Source: Escherichia coli
Lineage (GTDB): Bacteria; Pseudomonadota; Gammaproteobacteria; Enterobacterales; Enterobacteriaceae
DNA length: 5,772 bases
Assembly (NCBI RefSeq): GCF_050320075.1
Contig: NZ_CP190025.1
Reading direction: 5' to 3' (one strand)
The first letter of the stretch is position 1. Each line of letters begins with the position of its first letter. The notes under the pieces are model-generated. The model did not search any database, was not told where the DNA came from, and saw nothing but the letters and a program-made list of their open reading frames with translations. This document shows, piece by piece, positions 1 to 5,737 of the stretch. The position numbers and the translations under genes were made by a program.

Positions 1-1508
1 CGGTTGATTACCTGCTGGGGAGGGAGCGTAACCGCGAAGGCGCAACGGTGCTTCAGGGTAATCCGGAAGAAGTCCGGGAACTCATCGATGCCACGCCATT
101 TGCGAAGAAATACACGTCCGGTGTTCTGTCGTTCGCGGAGAAGGAACTGCCGCCGGGAGGACGTGAAAAAGTGATGGCGAGCTTTGAGCGTGTACTGATG
201 CCCGGTCTCGAAAAAAATCAGTACAGCATCCTGTGGGTGGAGCACCAGGACAAGGGACGGCTTGAGCTGAATTTTGTCATTCCGAACATGGAGCTACAGA
301 CCGGAAAACGCCTCCAGCCGTACTACGACCGCGCAGACAGGCCGAGAATTGATGCCTGGCAGACGCTGGTGAATCACCATTACGGACTGCATGACCCCAA
401 CGCCCCGGAGAACCGCCGGACGCTGACCCTTCCTGATAACCTGCCGGAAACGAAACAGGCACTTGCTGAGAGCGTTACACGCGGTATAGACGCACTTTAC
501 CATGCCGGAGAGATAAAAGGCCGTCAGGATGTGATTCAGGCGCTCACAGAGGCGGGGCTTGAAGTGGTCAGGGTGACGCGAAGCAGTATCAGCATTGCAG
601 ACCCGAACGGCGGGAGGAATATCAGGCTGAAAGGAGCATTTTATGAGCAATCTTTTACAGACGGGCGCGGAGTTCGAGAAAAAGCTGAAAGAGAGAGCCG
701 AATCTACAGAGAAAATGCTGAACGACGAGTTCAGGAAGCTCGGCGAGTCTGTCAGCGAGGCTGTGACCTCAAACGAGACGAAAATCAGAGACGCTATAGC
801 CCTGTTCACAGCCTCGACAGAGAAATCGCTGGAAAAACACCGGGAAGGGGTGAAAGAGGCGATGATGCAGCACAGGAAGGACGTGTTAAAGCTGGCAGGG
901 AATACGGGCATGATGTTACTGGGGATAGTCTTTCTCCTGTTTACCGCGAGTGGCGGGACGCTCTGGTATCTTGGCGGACGGATACAGACGAACCTGGAAG
1001 AAATCAGGAAGCAGGAAGAGACATTGCAGAAACTGAACGCGAAGACATGGGGCGTGGAGTTTGTGCAGGACGGGAACAGGAAATTCCTTGTCCTTCCGTA
1101 CGGGAAATCAGCGGAGGTGATTCCCTTTCAGGGGAAAGAGTGGGTACATCTGAAGGAGTGACACAGAGTGACAGAGCTGGAAATTCATTTGCTGAACGCC
1201 TTAGAGCAGCTGCAACAGGACTATATGCAGCGGCTGAGCGAATGGGAGAGCGCCTTCGTGGAATTGCAGAAGATGTTTTCGCTTACACAACGGGACAACG
1301 CGATGCTGAACGAGCGGGTCATGCAGTTGAGTCAGCAGGTGCAGCACTTGAGCGAGCAGACAGAACGCTTGAGCCAGTTATACAGCGAGAACTGGAGATA
1401 AGAGAGGAACGGTTGATACAGGAGCGCGAACATGTGTTATCCCTGGAACGGGAGCGTCAGCCGGAAATACAGGAACGCACGCTGGATGGCCCTTCGCTGG
1501 GATGGTGA
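1..1508 (+). CDS. mbeA: MbeA relaxase (ColE1-type, MOB_HEN family); 5' end cut by the window start, continues from 5727..5772
   Basis: The frame is open from nt 3 to TGA 1506..1508, with no stop upstream of the track's GTG at 48. Nt 3..47 translate VDYLLGRERNREGAT. The catalytic Tyr context VDY(19)LL (tac 9..11) and the HEN signature WVEH(97)QDKGRLE(104)LN(106)F match what I recall for ColE1 MbeA. Joined to 5727..5772 the gene is 1554 nt, which is 517 codons plus stop. Confidence 0.93.
   Translation, partial: VDYLLGRERNREGATVLQGNPEEVRELIDATPFAKKYTSGVLSFAEKELPPGGREKVMASFERVLMPGLEKNQYSILWVEHQDKGRLELNFVIPNMELQTGKRLQPYYDRADRPRIDAWQTLVNHHYGLHDPNAPENRRTLTLPDNLPETKQALAESVTRGIDALYHAGEIKGRQDVIQALTEAGLEVVRVTRSSISIADPNGGRNIRLKGAFYEQSFTDGRGVREKAERESRIYRENAERRVQEARRVCQRGCDLKRDENQRRYSPVHSLDREIAGKTPGRGERGDDAAQEGRVKAGREYGHDVTGDSLSPVYREWRDALVSWRTDTDEPGRNQEAGRDIAETEREDMGRGVCAGREQEIPCPSVREISGGDSLSGERVGTSEGVTQSDRAGNSFAERLRAAATGLYAAAERMGERLRGIAEDVFAYTTGQRDAERAGHAVESAGAALERADRTLEPVIQRELEIREERLIQEREHVLSLERERQPEIQERTLDGPSLGW
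643..1161 (+). CDS. mbeB: MbeB mobilization protein, nested inside mbeA in another frame
   Basis: ATG 643 is preceded by AAGGAG (631..636) with a 6-nt spacer, and the stop is TGA 1159..1161. The product is 172 aa with one hydrophobic span (MMLLGIVFLLFTASGGTLWYLG). The nested arrangement and the length are those described for ColE1 mbeB. Confidence 0.85.
   Translation: MSNLLQTGAEFEKKLKERAESTEKMLNDEFRKLGESVSEAVTSNETKIRDAIALFTASTEKSLEKHREGVKEAMMQHRKDVLKLAGNTGMMLLGIVFLLFTASGGTLWYLGGRIQTNLEEIRKQEETLQKLNAKTWGVEFVQDGNRKFLVLPYGKSAEVIPFQGKEWVHLKE
1168..1401 (+). CDS. mbeD: MbeD-like mobilization/entry-exclusion protein, nested inside mbeA in the same alternative frame as mbeB
   Basis: GTG 1168 lies 9 nt after AAGGAG (1153..1158). 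The 77-aa product is predicted helical and Gln/Leu-rich. Its position directly after mbeB matches the ColE1 mbeD arrangement. The exact start codon is uncertain. Confidence 0.65.
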   Translation: MTELEIHLLNALEQLQQDYMQRLSEWESAFVELQKMFSLTQRDNAMLNERVMQLSQQVQHLSEQTERLSQLYSENWR

Positions 1509-1509
1509 A

Positions 1510-1714
1510 ACCATGAAAAATGGCAGCTTCAGTGGATTAAGTGGGGGGAATGTGGCCTGTACCATCTGGTTGCATAGGTATTCATACGGTTAAAATTTAT
1601 CAGGCGCGATCGCGGCAGTTTTTCGGGTGGTTTGTTGCCATTTTTACCTGTCTGCTGCCGTGATCGCGCTGAACGCGTTTTAGCGGTGCGTACAATATTG
1701 TCGTTATGTTAAAT
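1510..1714 (+). other. cer: cer-type multimer-resolution site (accessory sequences plus XerC/XerD core)
   Basis: Nt ~1510..1695 match my memory of ColE1 cer (…ttgcataggtattcatacgg…cgggtggtttgttgccatttttacctgtctgctgccgtgatcgcgctgaacgcgttttagcggtgcgtacaa). An ARG-box-like tgcataggtattcata (1571..1586) lies ~100 bp upstream of the core. The core is XerC arm GGTGCGTACAA (1685..1695), an 8-bp central region TATTGTCG (1696..1703) and XerD arm TTATGTTAAAT (1704..1714). Confidence 0.85.
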
Positions 1715-1794
1715 GGTTTGGATGATCCCCCCATTTTCCACATTTGGTTGTGACGATTAAGATAAACTCGTCAGAATATTTGGGTGAGGAATAA

Positions 1795-2943
1795 TCATAA
1801 TATGATGGCTAGGAAGCATATTCCAATACCTATGAGCAGGTTCAACGTCATCATTATTTTTCTAAAAATACTGTTACAATTTGTTTTTAAAAAGAATGCT
1901 GATGGGATAATGAATACTGTTATTGCTATAATTGGGGTTGATAATGCAGCAATAACTTTTATAATTTCGAAATTGGCTTCGCCTGCTATAAATGTGATAA
2001 CAGATACGACAAAAACGATTAATGTTTTGTTTTTAAATCCAAGGGATACTATTGTATCAACAACGCCTGTTAGTGTACCTGTATATGCACCGCTGGTAAT
2101 TAAAATCATGGTTAATATGGAAATGTAAGCAACGAAACTATTTTTTGTTACGTTGGCGCTATATGATAATGCATCGCTGTTAATCTCGCGCATGTTTTTT
2201 ATGTCTGAAGGTGAGAATATATTGCTTAATGAGAACACGATGAATGAGATAAATATTAAAATTAATAGTATCCCAAACATGAAAAAACGTAAATCACCGG
2301 CTGTATCTTTTTTGTTTTGAGCAAAGCGTTGTATACATGGTGAAAAATTAAAACTAAATAAAACAACTGGAAATAGAGTAAGTAAATTACTTGTACTAAT
2401 ATTTTGTATTTCTGTAGAATGTGGATGTGCTGGATGTGAATAGAAATATATAGATAAGAACAGTACAATAAGCAAAGATGGAAATGCTATTCCTGATGCG
2501 AGATGCTCTATCTTTGAATTAAAAAAGATAAAAGAAGAACCAAGGGTTGCAGAAATAATCAGTGACACAAATATTCGCTCTGAACCATTTAGACTTAGGC
2601 TAAAGCAAATAATATTTATCATTGTTGTTATGTTTATAATTGCTATTAACAGCATTGATAATAGGAATGCAATACTGATAGCATTTGCGGCTTTTTTTCC
2701 GATAAATAATATGGCAGAACTAACGTATTCTTTTTTGTCTGTAATTAAAATGAATCTATAAAATGTAAATTGCCCTAATAAAGATACCAAAGATGATAAA
2801 ATCAGTATTGTTATTGTTCCGTGAGTTCCTATGACTTTGGGGCCTACAGTCTGGGGTAGGAAAAAAATCCCTGCCCCAAATGATGTTGCAAAGAATGTTA
2901 CTGGCCATTGGATGCTATTTATCTTCATTTTTGAACCTTTCAT
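1795..2943 (-). CDS. HAAAP-family (TC 2.A.42) amino-acid permease, SdaC/TdcC-like serine/threonine transporter homologue; substrate unknown
   Basis: The long ORF encodes a polytopic hydrophobic protein. Several segments align by eye to E. coli SdaC/TdcC. FGAGIFFLPQ matches IGAGVLFLPI. PVVLFSFNFSPCIQRFAQNKKD matches PVMVFSFNHSPIISSFAVAKREE. ALSYSAN matches ILSYLAN, and LSTPIIAITVFIIPSAFFLK matches LGGPIIAMILFLMPMYAIQK. I chose the start ATG 2943..2941 because it overlaps the upstream stop as ATGA. ATG 2928 (AAAGG 7 nt upstream) is an alternative. The track's 2979 start would overlap the upstream gene by 40 nt. Confidence 0.8.
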   Translation of the reverse strand: MKGSKMKINSIQWPVTFFATSFGAGIFFLPQTVGPKVIGTHGTITILILSSLVSLLGQFTFYRFILITDKKEYVSSAILFIGKKAANAISIAFLLSMLLIAIINITTMINIICFSLSLNGSERIFVSLIISATLGSSFIFFNSKIEHLASGIAFPSLLIVLFLSIYFYSHPAHPHSTEIQNISTSNLLTLFPVVLFSFNFSPCIQRFAQNKKDTAGDLRFFMFGILLILIFISFIVFSLSNIFSPSDIKNMREINSDALSYSANVTKNSFVAYISILTMILITSGAYTGTLTGVVDTIVSLGFKNKTLIVFVVSVITFIAGEANFEIIKVIAALSTPIIAITVFIIPSAFFLKTNCNSIFRKIMMTLNLLIGIGICFLAIIL

Positions 2944-3830
2944 TTGAAGCATGATGTTCCAAAGAAAATAAGTAAACATGGAAGATTAAAATTACTATAA
3001 AAAGATGCTGCTGCTTTATAGCCATTAATTACATTAGCCATTGAGCACAATGGGAATACACCTATGTGTGATGTGTAATTGTCAAATGTCTTGTTCGATG
3101 AAATTTTATATCGAATCGAGCGAAATGTAGCTGCGTTACCTGCTGCACAAGTCGGTTTGTTATTTTTTATCACTTCAAATGATGAACCATCGACATTCAT
3201 AAAAACAGAGTTGTTTTCTTTAAAAAATGGCTTTTCTTTTTCTTTTCTTTTAATGTGTCGTTTAAAACGATCTGCCATGTTTTTTTCACTAACATAGAAA
3301 CAATTTATTTTTATATTATGCTGATTCTGTTTCTCTATAATATAGTTATTTATTACTTCTGGTATTATATAGGGTGATGTGGCTAGTTTTCTATAAATAT
3401 TACCACCATCGATATCTTCGCCATTTGATTTTTCCATGTAGAAATCATTTATTTCCATGAGGAAATCAGGTTTTATATTTAGCTCATGTGTTGATTTTAT
3501 TATGTAGTCAATGCAAAATTTAGCCGATTTTTCAACCTCATTACTAACTGAAAAACGGTCATTCAAATTCACAACAGTATGTCCACCAGATATAATAATC
3601 TTGTCTGATGTGTATTTTTCGGCTAGTTTTATTACAGTATCTATGTTGTCATCTGATATTTCTGTGTTTATTATCTCATCGATTCCTGTGCAATCTGCTT
3701 TGTATACAACAAATCTGTCTTCTTTTTTCCAGTCTTTTGTACAATTACATTTATAGCCCTCGTATATTGCTCTTTTGTTTTTTTTATAAAAATCTGGACT
3801 TTGTAAGGGCATTATTTCTAGGTCTGGCAT
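2940..3830 (-). CDS. Hypothetical 296-aa soluble protein, Lys/Asn/Ile-rich, no family recognised; first gene of the cargo operon
   Basis: ATG 3830 is preceded by AAGGAAG (3844..3838) with a 7-nt spacer, and the stop is TGA 2942..2940. An uninterrupted 296 codons in ~25-30% G+C DNA is unlikely by chance. The only motif-level resemblance I see is DKIIISGGHTVVNL (strand followed by SGG), which is PP-loop-like but lacks the Asp/Ser of SGGxDS. There is also a Cys-containing PTCAAGNAATF segment. Confidence 0.75.
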   Translation of the reverse strand: MPDLEIMPLQSPDFYKKNKRAIYEGYKCNCTKDWKKEDRFVVYKADCTGIDEIINTEISDDNIDTVIKLAEKYTSDKIIISGGHTVVNLNDRFSVSNEVEKSAKFCIDYIIKSTHELNIKPDFLMEINDFYMEKSNGEDIDGGNIYRKLATSPYIIPEVINNYIIEKQNQHNIKINCFYVSEKNMADRFKRHIKRKEKEKPFFKENNSVFMNVDGSSFEVIKNNKPTCAAGNAATFRSIRYKISSNKTFDNYTSHIGVFPLCSMANVINGYKAAASFYSNFNLPCLLIFFGTSCFK

Positions 3831-3970
3831 AGTTATGCTTCCTTTGTCACAAAGAAAATATTTTGCTAATTATGACTTATACATATCAATGATAGAGATC
3901 ATGTTAGTGTTTGATCATTGATGTCTCCTTTATTTATGTGATGCGTCTCTATTTTTTCTCTTATAGTGTC

Positions 3971-3999
3971 TTGGATGTTATTTGTTAAATATGTATTGT
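3971..3999 (+). promoter_or_regulatory. Putative sigma70 promoter for the tRNA gene
   Basis: The elements are TTGGAT (3971..3976), a 17-nt spacer and TATTGT (3994..3999). The predicted start is ~4006, which is at the first tRNA nucleotide (4007). Both hexamers match the consensus at only 4/6 in an A+T-rich context, so this call is weak. Confidence 0.3.
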
Positions 4000-4006
4000 T
4001 TTTTGT

Positions 4007-4095
4007 GGAGAGGTGGGCGAGTGGTCTAAGTCAGGGCTCTCTTGAGGCCATATGCGACAAGCGTATCGTAGGTTCGAATCCTACCCTCTCCGCCA
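4007..4095 (+). tRNA. Type II (long variable arm) tRNA, Ser-like body with anticodon CUU; isotype ambiguous
   Basis: I folded the cloverleaf by hand. The acceptor stem is 4007-4013 GGAGAGG with 4085-4091 CCTCTCC, 7 Watson-Crick pairs. U8 is at 4014. The D stem is GGC (4016-4018) with GTC (4030-4032), and the D loop carries GG at 4023-4024. The anticodon stem is GGGCT (4034-4038) with GGCCA (4046-4050), giving a G-A mismatch on top, 3 GC pairs and 1 GU pair. The anticodon loop is CTCTTGA (4039-4045), placing anticodon CTT at 4041-4043. The variable arm is 17 nt (4051-4067), with stem TATGC/GCGTA and loop GACAA. The T arm is GTAGG-TTCGAAT-CCTAC (4068-4084). The discriminator is G4092 and CCA is encoded at 4093-4095. 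Confidence 0.85.
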
Positions 4096-4156
4096 TTTTG
4101 TTGATCGTTTCCCCCACCATTTGTTGAATTGAGAGGGGTTTTGAAAAAAGATCAAA

Positions 4157-4180
4157 GGATCCTCTTGAGATCCTTTTTTT
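4157..4180 (+). terminator. Weak intrinsic-terminator-like hairpin between the tRNA and RNA II; its 3' arm overlaps the RNA II -35
   Basis: The structure is GGATC (4157-4161), a 7-nt loop, GATCC (4169-4173) and then T7 (4174-4180). The equivalent element is present upstream of RNA II in pMB1-type origins. The stem is only 5 bp, so efficiency is probably low. Confidence 0.4.
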
Positions 4181-4193
4181 CTGCGCGTAATCT
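4165..4193 (+). promoter_or_regulatory. RNA II (replication primer) promoter
   Basis: The elements are TTGAGA (4165..4170), a 17-nt spacer and TAATCT (4188..4193), with +1 at about G4201. The layout is the same as the pMB1/ColE1 RNA II promoter as I recall it. Confidence 0.8.
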
Positions 4194-4202
4194 GCTGCCT
4201 GT

Positions 4203-4312
4203 AAACAAAAAAACCACCGCTACCAACGGTGGTTCGTTTGCCGGAATCAAGAGCTACCAACTCTTTTTCCCGAAGGTAACTGGCTTGGTGGAGCGCAGAT
4301 ACCAAATACTGT
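4203..4312 (-). ncRNA. RNAI: RNA I antisense copy-number regulator
   Basis: The bottom strand reads ACAGTATTTGGTATCTGCGCTCCACCAAGCCAGTTACCTTCGGGAAAAAGAGTTGGTAGCTCTTGATTCCGGCAAACGAACCACCGTTGGTAGCGGTGGTTTTTTTGTTTAC. This gives three hairpins and a terminal U-run, and it is fully complementary to the RNA II 5' end. Confidence 0.85.
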
Positions 4313-4318
4313 CCTTCT

Positions 4319-4348
4319 AGTGTAGCCTCAGTTAGGCCACCACTTCAA
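4319..4348 (-). promoter_or_regulatory. RNA I promoter
   Basis: On the bottom strand I read TTGAAG (4348..4343) and TACACT (4324..4319), with +1 at A (complement of 4312). The hexamers are the same as in pMB1. Confidence 0.7.
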
Positions 4349-4740
4349 GAACTCTTAATATCTCAATCCACCTTGTCCAGTTACCAATGGCTGCTGCCAG
4401 TGGCGTTAAGGCGTGTCTTACCGGGTTGGACTCAAGACGATAGTTACCGGATAAGGCGCAGCGGTCGGGCTGAACGGGGGGTTCGTGCACACAGCCCAGC
4501 TTGGAGCGAACGACCTACACCGAACTGAGATACCAACAGCGTGAGCTATGAGAAAGCGCCACGCTTCCCGAAGGGAGAAAGGCGGAGAGGTATCCGGTAA
4601 GCGGCAGGGTCGGAACAGGAGAGCGCACGAGGGAGCTTCCAGGGGGAAACGCCTGGTATCTTTATAGTCCTGTCGGGTTTCGCCACCTCTGACTTGAGCG
4701 TCGATTTTTGTGATGCTCGTCAGGGGGGCGGAGCCTATGG

Positions 4741-4746: not shown

Positions 4747-4959
4747 GCCACCGGCGCGGCCTTTTTTCGGGGCCTCTTTTTTGCTCACATGTTTTTTCCG
4801 GCGTTATCCCCTGATTCTGTGGATAACCGTATATCCGTCTTTGAGTGAGCTGATACCGCTCGCCGCAGCCGAACGACCGAGCGCAGCGAGTCAGTGAGCG
4901 AGGAAGCGGAAGAGCGCCTGATGCGGTATTTTCTCCTTACGCATCTGTGCGGTATTTCA

Positions 4960-5060
4960 CACCGCATATGGTGCACTCTCAGTACAATCTGCTCTGATGC
5001 CGCATAGTTAAGCCAGTATACACTCCGCTATCGCTACGTGACTGGGTCAGGGCTGCGCCC
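4960..5060 (-). other. oriT: bom/oriT region with nic motif
   Basis: The sequence is colinear with the pBR322 bom region (caccgcatatggtgcactctcagtacaatctgctctgatgccgcatagttaagccagtatacactccgctatcgctacgtgactggg). The bottom strand reads CTGG/CTTA at 5016..5009, which is the ColE1 nic sequence as I recall it. The predicted nick lies between 5013 and 5012. Confidence 0.7.
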
Positions 5061-5158
5061 CGACACCCGCTAAAACCTGCTGACGCGCCCTGACGGGCTT
5101 GTCAGCTCCCGGCATCCGCTCACAGACAAGCTGTGACCGTCTCCGGGAGCTGCATGTG

Positions 5159-5350
5159 TCAGAGGTTTTCACCGTCATCCCCGAAGCGTGCGAGGCAGCT
5201 GCGGTAAAGCTCATCGGCGTGGTCGTGAAGCGATTCACAGATGTCTGCCTGTTCATCCGCGTCCAGTTCGTTGAGCTTCTCCAGCAGCGTTAATGTCTGG
5301 CTTCTGATAAAGCGCGCCATGTTAAGGGCTGTTTTTTCCTGTTTAGTCAC
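5159..5350 (-). CDS. rom: Rom/Rop, RNA I-RNA II kissing-complex stabiliser
   Basis: The 63-aa product is VTKQEKTALNMARFIRSQTLTLLEKLNELDADEQADICESLHDHADELYRSCLARFGDDGENL, which matches the Rop sequence I know. The GTG start (5350..5348) is the same as in pBR322, and GGAGG (5360..5356) lies 5 nt upstream. The track's longer 95-aa ORF is only an upstream open extension. Confidence 0.95.
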   Translation of the reverse strand: MTKQEKTALNMARFIRSQTLTLLEKLNELDADEQADICESLHDHADELYRSCLARFGDDGENL

Positions 5351-5389: not shown

Positions 5390-5737
5390 ATGATACCGAT
5401 GAAACGCGAGAGGATGCTCACGATACGGGTTACTGATGATGAACATGCCCGGTTACTTGAACGCTGTGAGGGTAAACAACTGGCGGTATGGATGCGGCGG
5501 GTCTGCCTGGGGGAGCCGGTTGCCCGTTCCGGGAGGCTGCCGACACTGGCACCGCCGTTACTGCGTCAGCTGGCCGCCATCGGAAATAACCTGAATCAGA
5601 CAGCGAGGAAGGTGAACAGCGGGCAGTGGTCTTCCGGTGACCGGGTTCAGGTGGTGGCCGCACTGATGGCCATCGGGGATGAGCTGCGCCGGCTGCGTCT
5701 GGCCGTCAGGGAACAGGGGGCGCGGGATGATAGTTAA
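5390..5737 (+). CDS. mbeC: MbeC relaxosome accessory protein (ribbon-helix-helix N-terminus)
   Basis: The sequence MLTIRVTDDEHARLLERCEGKQLAVWMRRVCLG…NNLNQTARKVN matches ColE1 MbeC. The stop TAA 5735..5737 overlaps the mbeA start (ATG 5727). The start is ambiguous between ATG 5390, 5399 and 5414. ColE1 MbeC as I recall it begins at the MLTIRV Met, which is 5414. Confidence 0.9.
   Translation: MIPMKRERMLTIRVTDDEHARLLERCEGKQLAVWMRRVCLGEPVARSGRLPTLAPPLLRQLAAIGNNLNQTARKVNSGQWSSGDRVQVVAALMAIGDELRRLRLAVREQGARDDS

Follow-up and report, generated by a model that had tools for sequence, protein, structure and literature searches.

The stretch of DNA analysed here (the window; 5772 bp, from contig NZ_CP190025.1) is a complete circular ColE1-type plasmid of Escherichia coli, with 100% identity to the E. 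coli plasmid NZ_CP047007.1. Mobilization genes are followed by a cer-type Xer recombination site, a cargo segment of low G+C content (GC) and the replication control region, where RNAI lies on the minus strand and RNAII on the plus strand from about 4200 (Table 1). Our subject is the cer site. It is a mosaic, and we consider it highly probable that the host Xer recombinase made it by swapping site halves between related small plasmids. As the ColE1 reference we have used a 6647-bp colicin-E1 plasmid (L002).

Table 1. Features of the 5772-bp window, in order of position.
Feature	Position	Strand	Remark
Relaxase gene 3' end, then mbeB and mbeD	1-1401		
cer	about 1530-1714		between mob and cargo
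cer accessory sequences, left half	1530-1684	+	ColE1 haplotype; near-identity to L002
Pcer-like promoter, TTGCAT-15 nt-TAAAAT	1570-1596	+	predicted; overlaps ARG-box-like TGCATAGGTATTCA
Rcd-like long hairpin	1600-1672	+	from folding; wholly left of the crossover
XerC-binding arm GGTGCGTACAA	1685-1695	+	identical to the arm in L002
Crossover interval AA-T, XerC-arm/central junction	1694-1696	+	from L106 and both L016 junctions
Central region TATTGTCG, 8 bp	1696-1703	+	travels with the right side
XerD-binding arm TTATGTTAAAT	1704-1714	+	dif/consensus type
Right flank ggtttggatgatc, 13 nt	1715-1727	+	belongs to the right-half allele
Low-GC cargo segment, XerD arm to RNAII promoter region	1715-4143 (end about)		
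Ser/Thr-transporter-like membrane protein	1795-2979	-	394-aa open reading frame; relatives annotated as 377 aa
Stand-alone class-I aminoacyl-tRNA-synthetase-like protein	2940-3830	-	296 aa
tRNA-Ser-like RNA, long variable arm	4007-4095	+	ARAGORN (anticodon CTT); Rfam tRNA, 46 bits
RNAI (ColE1 replication control)	4205-4310	-	Rfam RF00106, 66.6 bits; backbone resumes
rop	5159-5350	-	
mobC	5390-5737		

The core at 1685-1714 reads GGTGCGTACAA-TATTGTCG-TTATGTTAAAT, as an initial annotation of this DNA had it (hyphens here and below separate XerC arm, central region and XerD arm). The composite motif GGTGCGTACAA-N8-TTATGKTAAAT occurs once in the window, where 200 shuffles give an expectation of 0 (up to 3 mismatches allowed). 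The organization is that of a cer-type site. An 8-bp centre lies between two arms of 11 bp, there is accessory sequence on the XerC side (where cer-type sites have about 180 bp that include the ArgR/PepA-binding region), and a Pcer-like promoter and Rcd-like hairpin lie inside the site in the direction of RNAII.

The left part of the site is that of ColE1. The window and L002 differ at 3 positions over 1401-1696 (296 nt), and the 260 nt up to the XerC arm are 99.2% identical, bearing out the claim that accessory sequences and XerC arm follow ColE1 cer. The core of L002 is GGTGCGTACAA-TTAAGGGA-TTATGGTAAAT, with the centre and XerD arm that the initial annotation had given for ColE1. Identity between the two plasmids stops at the XerC-arm/central junction, where backbone homology had been said to end. 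Six of the eight central positions differ (1697-1699 and 1701-1703), as does position 1709, and beyond 1714 there is no alignment. The XerD arm was correctly recognized as that of chromosomal dif, since E. coli K-12 dif (GGTGCGCATAATGTATATTATGTTAAAT) ends in TTATGTTAAAT (PMC2731167). GC falls from about 48% at 1501-1700 to 33% at 1701-1900, and the low-GC DNA next to the core, taken to be cargo, is real cargo by the edges of homology.

The sequence TGCATAGGTATTCA at 1571-1584 resembles an ARG box and would mark a putative ArgR-binding region. The segment 1600-1684 folds with a minimum free energy of -43.8 kcal/mol (z = -6.3), and the hybrid junction leaves the Rcd-like hairpin unaltered. Rfam holds no Rcd family, and the hairpin gave only chance-level microRNA matches in that database. 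The ColE1 Pcer has a 15-bp spacer (PMC5935869), to which our promoter scan, limited to spacers of 16-18 nt, is blind. rcd and RNAII are codirectional, in agreement with the published description of ColE1-like plasmids (PMC2831885). As judged from its sequence, the site is in all likelihood a functional-looking cer-type multimer-resolution site whose halves have different histories. Because the parts specific to cer lie in the left half, which is essentially identical to ColE1, and because the 8-bp centre is kept, we would expect ArgR/PepA-dependent dimer resolution by this site to be normal.

Exchange at the XerC-arm/central junction

Our comparison of cores covered 18 plasmids together with several metagenome contigs. 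In it the right half TATTGT(C/T)G-TTATGTTAAAT, together with near-identical cargo, is found on four unrelated left halves. These are the ColE1 haplotype (the window, L018 and L006), the haplotype shared by the restriction-modification plasmids L004 and L001 (in L106), the pPCP1/ColJs type (in L069), and the type of a 3003-bp plasmid (at junction 2 of L016, the plasmid pEC3-6). On all four the central region, TATTGTCG or TATTGTTG, stays with the XerD arm and the cargo. The initial annotation had assigned centre and XerD arm to the cargo side. They do travel with the cargo, but the right half is a widespread cer allele and not cargo-specific DNA, being found also with other cargo or none.

The position of the switch can be read directly in L106. 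This contig agrees with L004 at 9 of 9 diagnostic positions over 1413-1693, including the XerC arm GGTGCGTGTAA. Past that arm L004 reads TGCGACG where the window reads TATTGTCG, and L106 differs from the window by only 4 single-nucleotide polymorphisms (SNPs) over 1697-4300. Since L106 switches from L004 to the window between 1693 and 1697, the crossover is confined to AA-T at 1694-1696. This is the junction at which XerC cuts the top strand. The relatives of the two halves are thus incongruent, and the switch lies at the XerC cleavage position.

A cointegrate gives both junctions at once. pEC3-6 (NZ_CP060984.1, 8776 bp) carries two cer-like sites. At the first, ColE1-type accessory DNA leads into GGTGCGTACAA-TGAGACG-TTATGGTAAAT and foreign DNA; at the second, foreign accessory DNA leads into GGTGCGCGTAA-TATTGTTG-TTATGTTAAAT and the cargo. 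When p779-6 (5773 bp) and p10-2080.3 (3003 bp) are joined in silico at the XerC-arm/central junction, the product is pEC3-6 over its full 8776 bp, with 3 mismatches and 0 gaps. The parental site predicted for the partner is present with 100% identity in independent 3003-bp plasmids. Both junctions switch inside AA-T, with the central region going with the XerD arm. The exchange is reciprocal and conservative, and both ori regions remain parental. pEC3-6 is the product that would be expected of an XerC top-strand exchange fixed by replication.

The right half belongs to an allele family TAYTGYCG-TTATGTTAAAT (T-type), whose usual partners are left halves of the pPCP1/ColJs type (P-type). The mouse E. 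coli plasmids L005 and L007, which carry a 93%-diverged copy of the cargo, have the core GGTGCGTATAA-TACTGCCG-TTATGTTAAAT, and the closest relatives of the L005 left half (about 97%) stop at the XerC arm. The 13-nt flank ggtttggatgatc is common to L005 (agcttggatgatt) and L014 (agctaggatgatt), after which L014 has a different, C39-peptidase cargo. T-type right halves with P-type left halves occur in four downstream contexts: this cargo (L005, L069), the C39-peptidase cargo (L014), the cargo-less Shigella plasmid L013 (NZ_MW133289.1, 3287 bp), and pPCP1-like DNA (L008, L048, L098, L111). The ColE1-type left half is paired with a T-type right half only with this cargo, in the plasmid family of the window. 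Since the one pairing spans four contexts and the other only one, the ColE1-left/T-right pairing is probably the derived, recombinant one. In the donor search that had been proposed, a metagenome scan for TAYTGYYGTTATGTTAAAT gave mostly chance matches in AT-rich DNA, and every true match was a ColE1-type plasmid.

L013 has an L005-type core at 602 on its minus strand, where the final base of the XerD arm directly adjoins sequence of the RNAII region (window ~4380). The plasmid has a deletion that ends exactly at the outer edge of that arm.

Origin of the hybrid site

The mosaic is best explained by Xer recombination between two small plasmids. The left half (accessory sequences, Pcer/rcd and XerC arm) would come from the ColE1 cer lineage, and the right half (8-bp centre, XerD arm of the dif type, flank of about 13 nt) from a different cer allele family. 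XerCD recombination would join the heterologous cer-like sites of two co-resident ColE1-type plasmids, with XerC exchanging the top strands at the XerC-arm/central junction. The non-identical central regions would then block branch migration of the Holliday junction, and replication or another resolvase would generate a cointegrate with two reciprocal hybrid sites. A second crossover elsewhere, either homologous recombination in conserved ori/mob DNA or at the origin of transfer (oriT), would free cargo-swapped plasmids. The breakpoint, its reciprocity, the cointegrate and the parental sites are there in the sequences themselves; we infer from them that XerC was the catalyst, which way the exchange went and how the cointegrate was resolved. 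In the literature XerC alone is described as making the Holliday junction at cer, with processing that is XerD-independent and probably due to replication, and Xer recombination as contributing to the evolution of ColE1-type plasmids (PMC7399989, PMC8683028).

Several points weigh against this account. Recombination at cer normally favours intramolecular resolution, and intermolecular events should be rare. There is one cointegrate record only among 11 PLSDB records and 14 E. coli genomes, and two of the sequences used, L069 and L106, are contigs from metagenomes. Neither which way the event ran nor which pairing came first can be proved. Homologous recombination moves the block of cer and cargo too, for L006 matches the window over 1327-4386 bar 2 SNPs, with 82-90% identity elsewhere, including mob. 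Finally, L014 keeps the right half and 13 nt and then has different cargo, and thus at least one change of cargo took place outside the core.

The initial annotation had suggested a chimeric core left by Xer recombination between two cer-like sites, and the four left halves, the AA-T switch and the reconstruction of pEC3-6 are all in accord with this. It had further suggested that the cargo was acquired in that way. Xer recombination does explain the shuffling of cargo among ColE1 backbones, but the first capture was probably not Xer-mediated, because homologous cargo units elsewhere have no Xer site. The alternative offered there, loss of a colicin module, is unlikely; the nearest backbone is that of the Eco29kI-type plasmid L001 (99.5% over 1-1400 and 100% over 4201-4400), not that of ColE1.

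Could the core simply be a backbone allele, its centre and XerD arm having departed from those of ColE1 cer through point mutations in situ, without any recombination there? The central regions of cer-like sites vary widely, and the XerD arm is one base away from that of ColE1. However, differences affect six of the eight central bases but only 3 of the adjoining 296 nt, the downstream DNA is non-homologous, and one right half is found on four unrelated left halves. On this explanation cargo-free relatives might have been found with the same core and downstream sequence. A 62-nt query that covered the centre and the right flank matched 11 records in PLSDB and, of 5426 complete genomes of E. 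coli, 14, and all the matches were plasmids with the same cargo; in neither collection was there a relative that combined this core and downstream DNA with different cargo or none. The explanation is also contradicted by the reconstruction of pEC3-6, by the switch in L106 and by the comparison of the four left halves, and we regard it as hardly credible. Another alternative is a mosaic made by RecA-dependent homologous recombination or gene conversion in conserved cer DNA, the junction marking only the end of similarity. Homologous exchange clearly occurs, as L006 shows by agreeing with the window over 1327-4386 but not outside that segment. L069 and L106 are alike from about 1607 onwards with different haplotypes upstream, and in the comparison of the window with ColE1 alone the SNPs bracket the crossover only to 1565-1696. 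Yet three independent junctions (that of L106 and both in L016) are bracketed to the 3 nt of AA-T, with differing XerC arms directly to the left and differing centres directly to the right, which leaves no homology for exchange; the reciprocal, conservative nature of the cointegrate and its parental ori regions point the same way. We therefore think this origin quite improbable.

It is also conceivable that the pairing of a ColE1-type left half with a T-type right half is ancestral for this cargo, so that the other sites, including the TTAAGGGA site of ColE1, are the recombinants and that of the window is no hybrid. A reciprocal exchange gives no direction, and the window-type pairing is the commonest among the records that carry the cargo. 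Against this, T-type right halves are joined to P-type left halves in four contexts (L005/L069, L014, L013 and the pPCP1-like plasmids), the pairing with a ColE1-type left half is confined to the plasmid family of the window, and the diverged cargo copy in L005 has a P-type left half. An ancestral pairing is accordingly unlikely in our view.

Returning to exchange of half-sites by Xer, a bolder form is that the right half-site and cargo constitute a one-ended, Xer-mobilised cassette that moves between ColE1-type backbones. Its route would be an exchange by XerC only, cointegration, and resolution at ori or oriT. We put this forward tentatively, as rather doubtful. If true, it would be an enterobacterial counterpart of the Acinetobacter dif modules that needs a single site, and the cassette would spread an undescribed unit in which a stand-alone enzyme of the class-I aminoacyl-tRNA-synthetase-like kind is combined with a tRNA-Ser-like RNA of its own and a transporter for amino acids.

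The cargo and other junctions

In comparisons with plasmids that carry other cargo, homology is lost at 1714/1715 and regained at 4139-4146. In all the cargos examined, from 12 different plasmids, the right edge falls at one point, immediately before AAAAGATCAAAGGATC(T/C)TCTTGAGATCC, a sequence that contains the RNAII -35 region. This boundary equals the left one in sharpness but is without Xer-like sequence. No second Xer site is present at that edge, the window having one core only. The only other 11-mer in the window resembling an XerD arm, at 3980-3990, has 2 mismatches, a degree of similarity expected by chance, and no XerC arm adjoins it.

The transporter-like protein matches TIGR00814 (stp) with an E-value of 1.4e-23, under the curated cutoff. 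Its gene always adjoins that of the synthetase-like protein, among other places on a conjugative plasmid of 43 kb and at the Rahnella and Edwardsiella loci; at the Pectobacterium locus L140 no transporter-like gene was found. The 296-aa synthetase-like protein could be assigned to no family, and its homologues number only 56, each of them annotated as hypothetical. Two elements of its sequence are invariant, the GGH of ISGGHT and the stretch EK-MAD-F-R. PADLOC gave no match for either cargo protein, and a literature search for a plasmid system with synthetase-like and tRNA-like components returned nothing relevant.

The tRNA-Ser-like gene is divergent from the synthetase-like gene and has the acceptor strand GGAGAGG with G73. 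Its nearest phage matches are tRNA-Ser genes, and it is kept in L005 with 3 structure-compatible changes. A syntenic tRNA-like element (L144 2785-2892; L141 1879-1981) lies beside the homologous gene pair on the Edwardsiella anguillarum chromosome and in ~6.6-kb Rahnella contigs. There most of the acceptor, D and T arms is conserved, with BLAST matches confined to tRNA positions 1-24 and 60-89, and a longer, different hairpin stands in place of the anticodon arm. This replacement suggests that the Edwardsiella and Rahnella RNA is not used in decoding. No Xer-like sites were found near the homologous cargo units of Edwardsiella, Rahnella, Pectobacterium and the 43-kb plasmid (L139-L144).

Other junctions were seen in related DNA. 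In L106 the plasmid is interrupted within the tRNA-like gene (contig positions 7891 and 13673), with 9 bp (window 4064-4072) duplicated at the ends and adjoining DNA that carries an IS1 transposase gene and lacI-lacZ-lacY; the arrangement resembles the outcome of an insertion or replicon fusion mediated by IS1. In the metagenome contigs L022 and L104 the cargo plasmid is joined within its bom/oriT region (window ~5008-5068) to other plasmid DNA, and L022 has a second, different cer-like site, GGTGCGCGCAA-TACGGGA-TTATGGTAAAT. Recombination at oriT sites, which forms part of the published model discussed below, may account for these joins. Some relatives, including the Yersinia pestis plasmid pPCP1, have a second Xer site with a 6-bp centre, GGTAC(C/T)GATAA-CGGGAG-TTATGGTAAAT, which we take to resemble CloDF13 parB. 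Such second sites lie at 852 on the minus strand of L006, where the sequence is GGTGCTGATAA-CGGATG-TTATGGTAAAT, and at 7071 in L008, 3920 in L048 and 4488 in L098. At 996-1050 of L028, a 1050-nt metagenome contig, a GC-rich, Firmicutes-like open reading frame is joined at window 1691, within the XerC arm; this is probably an assembly chimera. Between the origin and rop (4748-5330), siblings that are otherwise nearly identical, such as L018 and L016, differ from the window by ~45 dense substitutions, which indicates a separate patch replacement by recombination.

Relation to known Xer systems

The site is closest to ColE1 cer. It has the same XerC arm, about 99% accessory identity, an Rcd-like hairpin, a promoter with a 15-bp spacer, an 8-bp centre, and the same orientation to RNAII and position between mob and cargo. 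It differs in its centre (TATTGTCG against TTAAGGGA), in its XerD arm (TTATGTTAAAT against TTATGGTAAAT) and in the DNA downstream. With chromosomal dif it shares an identical XerD arm; dif itself has a 6-bp centre and no accessory sequences, and undergoes FtsK-dependent exchange in which XerD acts first.

The pdif modules of Acinetobacter plasmids, to which the site had been likened, also have Xer half-sites at the edge of exchangeable cargo. The analogy fails in that their cargo lies between two XerC/D sites, whereas here there is a single core and the other edge is the RNAII promoter region. Integrative mobile elements exploiting Xer (IMEX), such as CTXphi, likewise rely on a single XerC strand exchange between non-identical sites, with a junction fixed by replication. 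They integrate at chromosomal dif; in contrast, this plasmid family has 0 chromosomal places in the 5426 complete E. coli genomes, all 16 places of the core plus flank being plasmid-borne, and its partners are plasmid cer-like sites.

Evolution of ColE1-type plasmids through Xer and oriT sites was reportedly described by Zakharova et al. in 2002 for pECL18/pKPN2 and by Tran et al. in 2012 for qnrB19 plasmids, and cer/parB hybrids are said to go back to Summers. The proposal that small ColE1-type plasmids evolve largely through recombination at Xer and oriT sites is cited in PMC7399989, PMC8683028 and PMC10454011. Our observations resemble the model, as summarised there, in that heterologous cer-like sites recombine, cointegrates form and resolve, and the cargo between cer and ori/oriT is reassorted. 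They differ in that cointegration here is at Xer cores, while in the summarised model plasmids fuse at oriT and are resolved at Xer. The site of the window is thus a new allele and a well-documented instance of a published process, and no new kind of element or mechanism.

What it provides is unusually clean natural evidence of XerC-side exchange between heterologous cer-like sites in small enterobacterial plasmids, with both parents, the reciprocal cointegrate and several resolved hybrids to hand, and with the central region and XerD arm seen to travel with the cargo. The cargo spread by this site may be the more valuable lead. The result supports the published model in which cer is a module boundary in ColE1-type plasmids, a group that also carries qnr, aac(6')-Ib and restriction-modification genes. 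When such plasmids are typed or traced, the two halves of a cer core should be treated as inherited independently of each other.
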